Of a DNA stretch of 48,005 bases, positions 4,901-7,900 are shown piece by piece. Within the stretch, counting starts at the first letter, position 1. Each line of letters opens with the position of its first letter. Position numbers and translations under genes: made by a program. Source of the stretch: Myxococcota bacterium. GTDB taxonomy: Bacteria; Myxococcota_A; Polyangia; JAAYKL01. The notes beneath the pieces were generated by a model. That model ran no database searches and was not told the DNA's origin. It saw nothing but the letters and a program-made list of their open reading frames with translations. The stretch spans positions 1-48,005 of the forward strand of contig JALOQD010000001.1 of NCBI GenBank assembly GCA_025453525.1, read 5' to 3'.

Positions 4901-7900
4901 GGACTCCCGTCGAACTCTCCACCTTCGCACCTTTCTATTCCGTAACGGCAGATGCCCACGCCATTGGGGTAGAAGAGTCCCGTGTGGCACTCCTGATACT
5001 GGCCCTCGTCGGTATTGCCGTCGCAGTTGTCGTCGATGCCGTTGCAGGTCTCGGGGAGGGGAGAGGCGGCTCCCTCACACGCCCAGGTTCCAACGTAGCA
5101 GCGGAAGACGCCGTGATTCAACAGGCAGGGTCCCTTGAGGTTGGGATCCGGAGGATTGGGCCAGGTCTGGCCAAAGAAGCACTCGGGCCCGGTCATGCCC
5201 ACATTTGAATCGTCTTGGCTCTCGTCGATGTGGCCGTCGCAGTCGTTATCCACGCCGTCGCAAGCGGTGCCTTCATTTTCTGGCGCGTTGGCGTTTGCGC
5301 GCAGGCACACGCCGTTTCCATCGACATCGGCGCAGCATTCCCCACCTAAGGTCCGCGGTTCTCCGGCCGCGGGCCGAGCACATCGCAGGCGGCCCTCGGG
5401 GCACTCTCCCACCTTCGCCGCGCACACCGATCCCTCTGGGCCCATGCGCGGAATTTCCCATTCTTCGTCTGTCTCGCCGTCGCAATCGTTGTCGAGGTTG
5501 TCGCACAGCTCGCCCTGAGCCGCCTTTACCTCGTTCTTGCAGCGACGCTCGCCTGCCTCGCACTTCCACGTGCCAGCCGCGCACGGTTCCTTACAACCCG
5601 TGCCGTCGCTGGCGCAGCCGCCGTCGCCCGAGGTGTAGCAGGCCCCGCCGCCCTGCGCGCCCCACGTGGAGCTCGGATTGCCATTATCCTCGTCGGTTAC
5701 CCCGTCGCAGTCGTTGTCCAGGCCGTCGCAGCTCTCAATCCCGCTGTCGCTCACCACGCAGTCGTATTCACAGCCGTTGCTCGAATCGCAGTCTTGGTCA
5801 AAATGCCCTGCGTCACAATCGCCCTTGCGGCACAGTCCGCCCACGCAAAGCGGCGTCGCGTCCGCGACCCGGCAGATGTTGCCGCATCGACCGCAGTTCT
5901 TGATGTCGGTATCGAAATCCACGTCCTCATCCGCGCCATCGGTATCGCAATCATTGTTGATGGCCACGTAGGGATTTTCGGTGTCGCCCTGGTACCCGCC
6001 GTCACACAGGTCCAGGTTGTCCGACGGGTCCACCGTGGGCTGACAGAAGACTTCACAGTCCTCTGAATCGCTGTCCCAGTCGTACCAGAAGGTGGTGCAC
6101 TTGCCCCGCTGGCACTTGCCGCCTTGGCACACGGAAAAGGCATGCTCGTACGCGCACACGTTGGCGCACGAGCCGCAGTGGGCTGGGCTCGTTAGGTCCG
6201 CGTGCTCATCCGTCTGCCCGTCGCAATCGTTGTCCACGCCGTCGCACTCGTCGTCCGCGCCAGCAACGGCGCAGGTCGCGGTGTCCGTGAGCGTGTCCTC
6301 TGTCTCGGTGCCGTCTGTCCCGCCCGTGCCGTTCGTGTTCGTCCCATCCGTGCCTGTCGTGTCTGTTCCATTCGTGCCTTCCAGACCTTTGAACTCGAAC
6401 GGCTCCACCTGGCAGCCCAGGGACATGAACAGGGCGAGGGCTCCGAGGAGCCACGCGAGCGCCTGGCCTCGCGGTCGCCGAGCCCGCAGCAGCAGCGCGA
6501 GCCCGGGCAGCACCACGAGCCACAACCAGCCCAGCGTCGACCCTCCGCGACCGGGTGTCGCGGCGCACAAGCAGCCGCCCGCGCCTGTGGCCAGCACCTT
6601 GGTCAACTCGTTCTCCTCCACGCCCGGCACCTTGCCTGTGTCCTCTGGTTCTGTGCCAGGGTTGGTGTCTGTCGCCGAGGTGTCTGTGCCATCGTCCGTC
6701 GCATCCGTACCTTGGCTGCCTCCTCCAGGCTGGAAGTCCACGGCGTAGCACGACCCGCCCACGCACCGCCGGCCATTTGGGCAGTCCACGTTGCGGCAGG
6801 GATCTGACACGCACTCGCCGTCTTTACAAACCTGATAGTATTCGCACACCTTGCCCCAGCAGTCCCCGCGCTCGCACTTGCCTGTCTGCGGATGGCACGA
6901 CAAGCCCACGTCGCACACCTTGCCCGCGCAGGGGTCGTCCACACACTCGCCGTCGCGGCAGGACACCGGGCAGTCCTGGTTGACGCACGCGTCCACGCAC
7001 GCCCCGTCCTTGCAGTACGCATCGCCCTCGCACGCCGTGCTCGAACACGGATCGTCCACGCAGGTGCCGCCCTCGCACTGCTTCCCACTCTCGCAGCCAG
7101 TGGCGTAACAGCCAGGCCCAGCCTCCACGCACTGGGCGCTGACCTTTTTGTTCGTCACCACGGCGATGCACACCTCGCTGGGCAGACACTCCATGCCCTC
7201 GCAGGGGCTGACGCATTCCTTGTGAAGCGCGTCGCACTTGCACGGCGGGCTAGCGCCTTCATCCGTGCAGTAATACGGGTTGTCCGCGCACAAGAGAGCG
7301 TCCTTGGTCCCAGGCGCGCACACGTCGTCGATACACACGCGCATTTTCTCGTTTGTGGTCGGATTGGTCACCTCTTCGCAGGTCTTGCCTGCTGGGCACG
7401 AGGCTTCTTGTCCAGCGCACGGCGGCGCGCACTCGCCTTCCACGCAGATGTTTCCCGCCGGGCACTCCACTGCGAGCCCCTCGTCCGTCTTACCGTCACA
7501 GTCGTCGTCCAAGCCGTTGCACGACTCCACGCCTTGGCCGGGCGCGTCGCACTTCCACTCGCAATCGAGACACCGCATCACGCCCTCGATGCACGCCCCG
7601 GTCGCCGGGCCGTCCGGGTTGTTTTCGCACGCCGCGCCTGCGGGGATGCCATTATCCGTAACGCCGTCGCAGTCGTCATCCAGACAGTTGCATTCTTCCG
7701 TGAACGGTCCAAAGCTTCCCACGCACTCCATTTCGCAGGTGGGGACGGCGGTGTCGCATTCGCAGACCCACGCGCCCCTCTTGCACACCCCCAGGCTCAC
7801 TGACCCGCACGGATCGCCCACGCCATCCAGTTCCTCGTCCGTGTCCCAGTCCTGCAACCCGTCGCAGTCGTCGTCATCCCCGTTGCACACCTCGAACTGT

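Follow-up and report, generated by a model that had tools for sequence, protein, structure and literature searches.

The DNA analysed here is a stretch of 48,005 nucleotides from a Myxococcota bacterium (assembly GCA_025453525.1, contig JALOQD010000001.1, positions 1 to 48,005), called the window below. It carries a very long open reading frame (ORF), the mega-ORF, whose parts are collected in Table 1. Near its middle, residues 1546-1612 read VLATGAGGCLCAATPGRGGSTLGWLWLVVLPGLALLLRARRPRGQALAWLLGALALFMSLGCQVEPF. In this region, which we call the joint, VLATGAGGCLC is followed by a hydrophobic helix, the basic segment RARRPRG, a second hydrophobic stretch, SLGC and finally QVEPF. A sequence-only reading of the window had seen here a MYXO-CTERM sorting tag and a lipoprotein signal, back to back and in frame in the middle of one ORF, and residues 1546-1612 indeed read as it described. 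It had also reported that no stop codon, ATG or Shine-Dalgarno sequence separates the two signals. This was borne out on the ORF DNA: between the two hydrophobic segments we found no stop codon, no ATG and no convincing ribosome-binding site. The loop joining them is only 7 residues long and contains neither a start codon nor an overlap remnant. The 147 Cys residues of the N half and the 127 of the C half accompany disulfide-type MopE repeats in which both halves are rich. Therefore, both halves must leave the cytoplasm; their export is required by the cargo. At the N half of the query, where the sequence is vWA-like, homologues carry PF00092.

The first part of the joint shows the Gly-rich Cys signature of MYXO-CTERM as GGCLC, residues 1552-1556, with Cys1554 at 6571-6573 and Cys1556 at 6565-6567 of the window. 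The MYXO-CTERM profile of NCBIfam, TIGR03901, matched a 60-residue piece with 17.7 bits (E = 0.003) over profile positions 2-33 of 34, and longer pieces of the query with 14.4-14.9 bits; its curated cut-off is 20 bits. A NCBIfam scan of the entire 3101-residue protein gave no match, the tag being visible only in short-piece scans. Helix 1, TLGWLWLVVLPGLALLL, is uncharged and includes Pro1576, and the Arg cluster RARRPR stands behind it. The tag does not end the protein: the chain goes on for 1512 residues after the Arg cluster. As for the second part, GALALF-MS-L-G-C satisfies a PROSITE-style lipobox rule, the 6 positions ahead of M-S-L-G-C being uncharged. The uncharged run ahead of the lipobox Cys, made of the h-region and the first lipobox positions, measures 18 residues, with RARRPRG directly upstream. 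This Cys is residue 1607 (6412-6414) and thus not N-terminal, as it is in ordinary lipoprotein precursors. A further NCBIfam profile, NF058595 ('lipo-invert putative C-terminal anchoring domain'), aligned weakly with helix 1, the loop, helix 2 and the lipobox over profile positions 18-74 of 113; its 12.8-14 bits are below the cut-off of 37 bits.

Table 1. Parts of the mega-ORF and their positions on the window (aa, amino acids)
Feature	Position	Strand	Remarks
Mega-ORF	1927..11232	minus	3101 aa + stop; uninterrupted; 25 MopE-type Cys repeats (Pfam), in both halves
N-terminal Sec-type signal peptide, residues 1-29	11146..11232	minus	MHTFSRPTSLVACFVALVVLAFLPRLGQA, followed by AE; cleavage site read by eye; hydrophobic segment 6-27
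N half, residues 30-1545	6598..11145	minus	vWA-like start with DTSGS MIDAS motif, MopE repeats, Cys-rich stalk, D/T/G-rich linker
Internal MYXO-CTERM-type tag, residues 1546-1589	6466..6597	minus	VLATGAGGCLC, spacer, helix 1, Arg cluster; TIGR03901 match
Helix 1 of tag, residues ~1566-1582	6487-6537	minus	hydrophobic segment
Arg cluster RARRPRG	6466-6486	minus	end of tag
Lipoprotein-type signal, residues 1590-1607	6412..6465	minus	h-region QALAWLLGALALFM and lipobox S-L-G-C
Motif Q-V-E-P-F after lipobox Cys	6397..6411	minus	family consensus x-V-[DE]-P-[FYW]
C half, residues 1608-3101	1930..6411	minus	T/G/D-rich tether, MopE repeats, FGE-sulfatase-like domain, tail of ~180 aa
FGE-sulfatase-like domain, residues 2758-2917	2482-2961	minus	Pfam

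A full-length protein search with the mega-ORF returned 1183 proteins at E ≤ 1e-10, and the best 120 were examined together with the query (n = 121). These homologues come from NCBI metagenome-assembled genomes (MAGs) and from JGI, ENA and Logan assemblies, and they include complete genomes, for example that of Sandaracinus amylolyticus (P0061). A hydropathy scan showed two adjoining mid-protein hydrophobic segments in most of the best 120 homologues, with recurring flanks: RVLA[TAS]G-x-GGC-x-C, helix, RRRR, helix, [AGS]-G-C-x-V-[DE]-P-[FY]. The joints of alignment A1 had been picked by a regular expression demanding C.C and the lipobox Cys, which makes its 'invariant' columns partly circular. 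The residues were therefore recounted with a detector that searches for a mid-protein hydrophobic-basic-hydrophobic unit and ignores Cys. Such a unit was found in 93 of the 121 proteins. A Cys lies at most 28 residues upstream of helix 1 in 91 of the 93 units, and 80 have CxC; the first Cys of this motif is not universal, and single-Cys variants occur. At the end of helix 2, 85 of the 93 show [GAS]-C within a strict test window. The 8 exceptions include 5 with a Gly-Cys just beyond that window, one variant of the signal peptidase I type and one false detection.

Among 84 extracted joints, the lipobox rule is satisfied in 82 and Gly occupies position -1 in 82, with small residues at -2 and -3. 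Behind the lipobox Cys, Val is found at +3 (65/84), Asp or Glu at +4 (76/84), Pro at +5 (81/84) and Phe, Tyr or Trp at +6 (81/84). This x-V-[DE]-P-[FYW] motif, almost invariant and kept in split as well as fused forms (see below), continues as C-[LIF]-x-C in one sub-type. It might be a signal for lipoprotein sorting or surface export, or a folding nucleus. The tag Cys, the lipobox Gly-Cys and x-V-[DE]-P-[FY] are near-invariant despite an overall identity of about 30%. The helices show no conserved positions in the alignment of homologous joints, and the loop varies in length from 3 to 38 residues with a net charge of +3 to +11. Conserved processing residues combined with freely varying helices and loop are the pattern of disposable signals rather than of a packed hairpin. 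In addition, the lipobox Cys is preceded by an uncharged run of 16 residues in the family median and of 11 at the least; a stable membrane span would normally be longer. TIGR03901 matched 43 of 67 homologous joints at E ≤ 1 (best E = 4.4e-8) and 28 of 67 at E ≤ 6e-4, a threshold corresponding roughly to at least 20 bits. NF058595 weakly matched 32 of the same 67, with only 4 at E ≤ 6e-4.

The nearest homologue, P0001, is 61% identical to the query overall and 86% in the joint, which it carries in frame. Over 81 joint codons, 54 are identical in the two genes, 16 differ synonymously and 11 non-synonymously. The P0001 locus is not syntenic with the window, so that it supports conservation of the joint and not positional orthology. 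We also scanned GTDB genomes using an alignment of a 12-sequence subset of the joints. In six loci (L001-L006), single frames of 2680-3332 aa run through the joint. Two of them, L005 and L006, are paralogous fused mega-genes on the same contig, JAFGQN010000109.1, with open frames of 3284 and 3332 aa about 30 kb apart.

Seven loci carry the joint in split form (L007, L008, L013, L038, L039, L045 and L046). There, gene 1 ends in RVLA[AST]GGGGCxC, a helix and RRR...R directly before the stop codon, which is a terminal MYXO-CTERM tag. Gene 2 starts with an ATG or GTG overlapping the TGA of gene 1 (4-nucleotide ATGA or GTGA), and its N-terminus, M-x-R-h-region-[AG]GC-x-V-D/E-P-[FY]-C, is an ordinary lipoprotein signal. 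In L007, L013, L045, L046 and L039, the lipobox Cys of gene 2 is at about residue 23-30. A GGGAGG-like Shine-Dalgarno site lies 6 nucleotides ahead of the gene 2 start in L007, L045 and L046. In L007, a Polyangiales MAG, gene 1 (2761-6165, 1134 aa) ends in RVLASGGGGCLCTAVGGESRSSSGLALLLSALGLVLARRRSVRRGQGGVR followed by the stop codon, and gene 2 (6162-8657, 831 aa) begins with MIRRSVRLSALFSASLLLVLAGCQVDPFCLDC. Gene 1 encodes MopE repeats, gene 2 MopE repeats and an FGE-like domain, and the two genes are collinear with the halves of the fused protein P0079, at 53% and 49% identity.

The other six split loci were obtained by searching metagenome DNA with the pattern G-C-x-V-[DE]-P-[FY]-C-x-x-C, which returned 39 loci. 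Of these, 28 are fused, 6 are split (a MYXO-CTERM tag terminates the upstream gene, and the two genes overlap by 4 nucleotides, ATGA or GTGA), one is a lone lipoprotein (L029), one is cut by a contig end (L040) and 3 are chance matches (L009, L043, L044). As for the question put by the sequence-only reading, whether related loci carry one gene or two, the fused form is the more frequent among these 39 loci, and a stop follows the Arg cluster in the seven split loci. Two pairs of split loci, L038 with L039 and L013 with L045, consist of diverged contigs taken from different samples, and the two contigs of each pair have the same arrangement. Therefore, the split is not a sequencing error. The terminal tags of the split relatives score 12.5-26.1 bits with TIGR03901, so that the 17.7 bits of the query lie within the range of genuine terminal tags. 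A neighbour-joining tree of the FGE-like segment, rough because its alignment is gappy and carrying no support measure, suggests that split forms are scattered among the fused ones and do not form one clade.

The split junctions themselves are nearly identical (GG(G)AGG-N6-ATGA, gene 1 ending in -G-G-[VAT]-R before the stop), at 6150-6165 in L007, ~6955-6972 in L013, ~12342-12365 in L045 and ~1155-1176 in L046. In L008, on the minus strand, tandem SRKGNQQAL-like repeats stand between the ATG of gene 2 (stop overlap 1794-1796) and the h-region; with the lipobox at about 1620, this gives gene 2 an unusually long n-region. The loop of the query (RPRGQ, CGA GGC CAG G) resembles the tail of gene 1 in L007 (RRGQ, CGC GGC CAG G), which may be an overlap remnant or chance.

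A joint profile was then compared with 1.84 billion representative proteins and gave 115 matches at E ≤ 1e-3, 29 of them at E ≤ 1e-10. Wherever the full length of the profile matched, the joint was in the middle of a protein of ~1000-4800 aa or in a fragment. Proteins that matched through profile positions 2-49 only (P0201, P0206, P0167, P0223) carry ordinary terminal MYXO-CTERM tags there, showing that the first half of the joint is homologous to real MYXO-CTERM tags. The joint is modular and connects unrelated cargo. In P0166 (1608 aa, joint at 814-887), a GH15 glucoamylase precedes it and a CBM and an alpha-amylase follow, and in P0177 (1331 aa, joint at 757-823) MopE and FG-GAP repeats precede it and a Laminin_G_3 domain follows. 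Five further proteins with the joint (P0164, P0189, P0216, P0203, P0173) have no Pfam match at all. P0165, considered as a stand-alone second half, proved to be a truncated gene call, its sequence being found unchanged inside P0082, and does not count as a split form.

Three of the proteins display a sister architecture (P0044 at ~4120-4200, P0038 at ~4240-4320 and P0118 at ~3040-3100). GGGCQC, a helix and RRR are followed by a hydrophobic segment with a signal-peptidase-I-like end (VSA before QK, LYA before QQ). An outer-membrane-barrel-type domain (PF13557) comes after the joint in P0044 and P0118, and P0118 also has carboxypeptidase-regulatory-like domains and an OmpA domain. Since a barrel has to leave the inner membrane, the second signal must be cleaved in the sister form. 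Accordingly, the type of the second signal goes with what the cargo requires.

Overall, the analysis shows a real and conserved joint that is modular and comes in a fused and a split form. The joint is best read as two complete membrane-sorting signals back to back, with one Arg cluster shared as the tail of the tag and the n-region of the lipoprotein signal. The sequence-only reading had offered a fusion of two tandem genes as one origin, and the seven loci with a collinear two-gene form and an ATGA or GTGA overlap support that two translationally coupled genes were fused in frame. The first of them would have been a vWA-MopE adhesin ending in MYXO-CTERM, and the second a lipoprotein carrying MopE repeats together with an FGE-like domain. 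The precursor is probably cut by a myxosortase and by LspA into two lipid-anchored halves. Cutting at both sites is favoured by the near-invariance of the processing residues, by the split form, whose mature products are necessarily separate, and by the barrel of the sister form.

Several observations weigh against such double processing. We infer both cleavages, both lipidations and the final location from sequence in every member of the family. The tag of the query is sub-threshold (17.7 versus 20 bits with TIGR03901) and has a Pro inside its helix, where Pro is absent according to Haft's description of MYXO-CTERM. Split forms occur only in the GC-D-V-D-P-F-C-L-D-C sub-type and not in that of the query (GCQVEPFEF). 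The three conserved Cys would lie on the periplasmic face, where their role could also be structural, in a disulfide or a metal site. Moreover, substrates of MrtX and LspA would here bear a large extension on the 'wrong' side, and among the 20 large ORFs of the 48-kb window there is no match to CPBP (myxosortase), LspA or Lgt.

Instead, only one of the two signals might be used: LspA might free the C half as a lipoprotein, the hairpin staying as the anchor of the N half, or MrtX might free the N half, the C half keeping an uncleaved signal-anchor. The sub-threshold tag and its Pro are in line with such partial processing, and Guo, Haft & Wall (mBio 2025, PMC11980579) report that part of a MYXO-CTERM protein arrives at the cell surface without having been cleaved. 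The weak NF058595 matches in 32 of the 67 joints further suggest that the curators envisage anchoring by such a unit. We nevertheless consider it doubtful, as fused proteins that have diverged to ~30% identity conserve the residues of the one signal as well as those of the other and as each signal is used on its own chain in the split forms. A permanent transmembrane hairpin, proposed by the sequence-only reading beside the polyprotein, would leave the protein uncut: two helices would hold it in the inner membrane, both halves would be periplasmic and the Cys would be structural (disulfide or metal site). The positive-inside rule fits, given the charge of the loop (+3 to +11), the three conserved Cys are on one membrane side, and the processing of the joint is deduced rather than observed. 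On the other hand, the helices lack conserved packing positions, the loop ranges from 3 to 38 residues and the second hydrophobic run goes down to 11. Gly at -1 (82/84) and small residues at -2 and -3 are needs of Lgt and LspA and not of a hairpin; the two products of the split relatives are separate chains, and amylases or outer-membrane barrels could not work while held in the inner membrane. The hairpin is thus quite unlikely, and between the two proposals the sequence evidence favours a polyprotein cut at both signals.

Two further explanations were considered. A lost stop or a 1-nucleotide indel might have merged two ordinary genes, as split and fused forms differ by a single frame shift in the loop and the gene is repetitive. 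Such an assembly or sequencing artefact, also raised by the sequence-only reading, is rejected as highly improbable: dozens of genomes and metagenomes, each assembled independently, show the joint in frame; it is found in the six GTDB loci, in 28 metagenome contigs, in most of the 120 best homologues and in P0001 with its 86% identity. Moreover, the 7-residue loop of the query lacks the start codon or overlap remnant of a split gene. Alternatively, the second half might be made from a start codon inside the single ORF, and in-frame GTG codons do exist within helix 1. Here again the probability is minimal, since ATG and Shine-Dalgarno sequences are absent before the second hydrophobic segment, initiation inside helix 1 would give an abnormal signal, and nothing comparable is conserved in the homologues.

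Cutting at both signals, the reading that we prefer, could proceed as follows. The N half would be exported via its N-terminal Sec signal until helix 1 halts transfer, leaving the Arg cluster in the cytoplasm; helix 2 would then restart translocation, now of the C half. On the model of Guo et al. (PMC11980579), the tag Cys would be lipidated and the chain cut after it by the myxosortase MrtX. The lipobox Cys would be modified by Lgt/LspA and the chain cut before it. This would yield two separate proteins of the envelope or surface, a vWA-MopE protein with a lipid anchor at its C-terminus and a MopE-FGE-like lipoprotein with a lipid anchor at its N-terminus, and, as a by-product, a discarded hairpin peptide of ~50 residues. 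The fusion would ensure 1:1 synthesis at one translocon, and could be seen as the protein-level counterpart of the ATGA translational coupling of the split forms. Whether the joint is, beyond the query, a general Myxococcota device for membrane-sorted polyproteins, cut by a CPBP-type myxosortase and signal peptidase II, we regard as evenly balanced. If so, such proteins would give two oppositely lipid-anchored partners in a 1:1 ratio, one anchored C-terminally and one N-terminally, and free a small hairpin peptide.

MYXO-CTERM sorting was linked to its protease only in 2025 (PMC11980579), and the lipidating enzyme is still sought. In the joint, a single substrate bears a MYXO-CTERM Cys and, a few nanometres away, an Lgt/LspA lipobox Cys. 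If the general device holds, the two Cys would be at the same membrane face and would make the joint a natural substrate on which to test whether the acyl-transferase missing from the MYXO-CTERM pathway is Lgt. With its occurrence in more than 100 natural proteins and its natural split-gene controls, the joint is a compact cassette of ~65 residues in which to study the order of processing, the enzymes required and the type of lipid. Overlapped start-stop gene pairs and single fused genes appear in it as interchangeable routes to two envelope proteins made together. For annotation, giant 'single' surface proteins of Myxococcota may be two mature proteins, and internal matches to models of C-terminal sorting tags should not be dismissed as noise.

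The neighbours of the mega-ORF in the window are housekeeping genes: ABC transporters, a helicase, PmbA/TldD, PurL/PurQ, a patatin, an HflX-type GTPase, a glycosyl hydrolase family 3 protein and NamZ. Five large ORFs, at 13168-14757 (minus strand), 14246-15508 (plus), 38771-41194 (minus), 43950-45506 (plus) and 45737-47029 (minus), have no Pfam match at E ≤ 1e-3. They cannot all be real, since some have overlaps with one another on opposite strands, or with annotated-looking genes. Within the mega-ORF, the tail of the last ~180 residues (1927-2480, minus strand) is without a family match, and many shorter homologues stop right behind the FGE-like domain.

Internal sorting tags as such are already known. 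The sequence-only reading was aware of no described case of a polyprotein cut by two membrane-sorting machineries; this stands for the pairing of MYXO-CTERM with a lipobox, of which we found no description in the searchable literature, but not for internal tags, which MXAN_5598, HVO_0405/ArtA, 'midcut-by-XrtH' and 'lipo-invert' had already brought up. What appears to be undescribed is the MYXO-CTERM/lipobox pairing, its strict conservation in more than 100 protein clusters, the x-V-[DE]-P-[FY] motif and the coexistence of fused and ATGA-split forms.

The closest known case is MXAN_5598 of Myxococcus xanthus, in which an internal MYXO-CTERM is followed by an outer-membrane barrel and OmpA domains (PMC11980579). 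Its authors devote one paragraph to it and propose, without experiment or family analysis, a fusion of two genes with processing of the N part; they name the overlapping ORFs traA and traB as a split analogue (PMC11980579). Like the query, MXAN_5598 has a large adhesin-like N part, an internal MYXO-CTERM and a second exported part, and P0044, P0038 and P0118 share its architecture. It differs in its second signal, of the signal peptidase I type and leading to a barrel, whereas the query has a lipobox signal with lipoprotein cargo. The C part of the query, MopE repeats and an FGE-like domain instead of a barrel, thus sets it outside the MXAN_5598 type, and in the query both halves would end lipid-anchored.

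That sorting tags can work mid-protein is stated by the same authors, who cite Navarre and Schneewind 1994 and Abdul Halim et al. 2017 (PMC11980579). The latter concerns HVO_0405 of Haloferax volcanii, whose non-C-terminal PGF-type tripartite signal undergoes ArtA-dependent processing (J Bacteriol 199:e00802-16, as cited in PMC11980579). As presented there, it is an experimental precedent for a mid-protein cut at a 'C-terminal' tripartite sorting signal. On the same account it differs from the query in being archaeal, with a PGF-CTERM and an archaeosortase. We know of no lipobox signal behind the PGF-type signal of HVO_0405. Two NCBIfam families point in the same direction by their names: NF033207 ('midcut-by-XrtH protein') implies a mid-protein sorting signal, in the exosortase/PEP-CTERM system, and is not matched by the query, while NF058595 ('lipo-invert') implies a lipobox-containing two-helix anchor, of which the query is not a member by score. 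A literature search found no publications on either family.

With terminal MYXO-CTERM proteins such as TraA (TIGR03901; PMC11980579; bioRxiv 10.1101/2023.06.07.544157), whose tag is cleaved by MrtX in a Cys-dependent manner (PMC11980579), the query shares the Gly-rich Cys motif, the helix, the Arg cluster and the upstream disordered linker. Its GGCxC compares with the MYXO-CTERM consensus GCGC, and the match to the hidden Markov model spans the full profile. Unlike the TraA-type tags, that of the query is internal, scores 17.7 bits (below 20) and has a Pro in its helix. With ordinary Lgt/LspA lipoprotein signals it shares a positive n-region, an uncharged stretch, an S-L-G-C lipobox and a flexible tether; unlike them, it follows another membrane helix, 1580 residues into the protein, and has the family-specific x-V-[DE]-P-[FY] after its Cys. 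By position the joint is not a canonical MYXO-CTERM, yet it most likely acts as a sorting tag of the MYXO-CTERM kind and as a lipoprotein signal at once.

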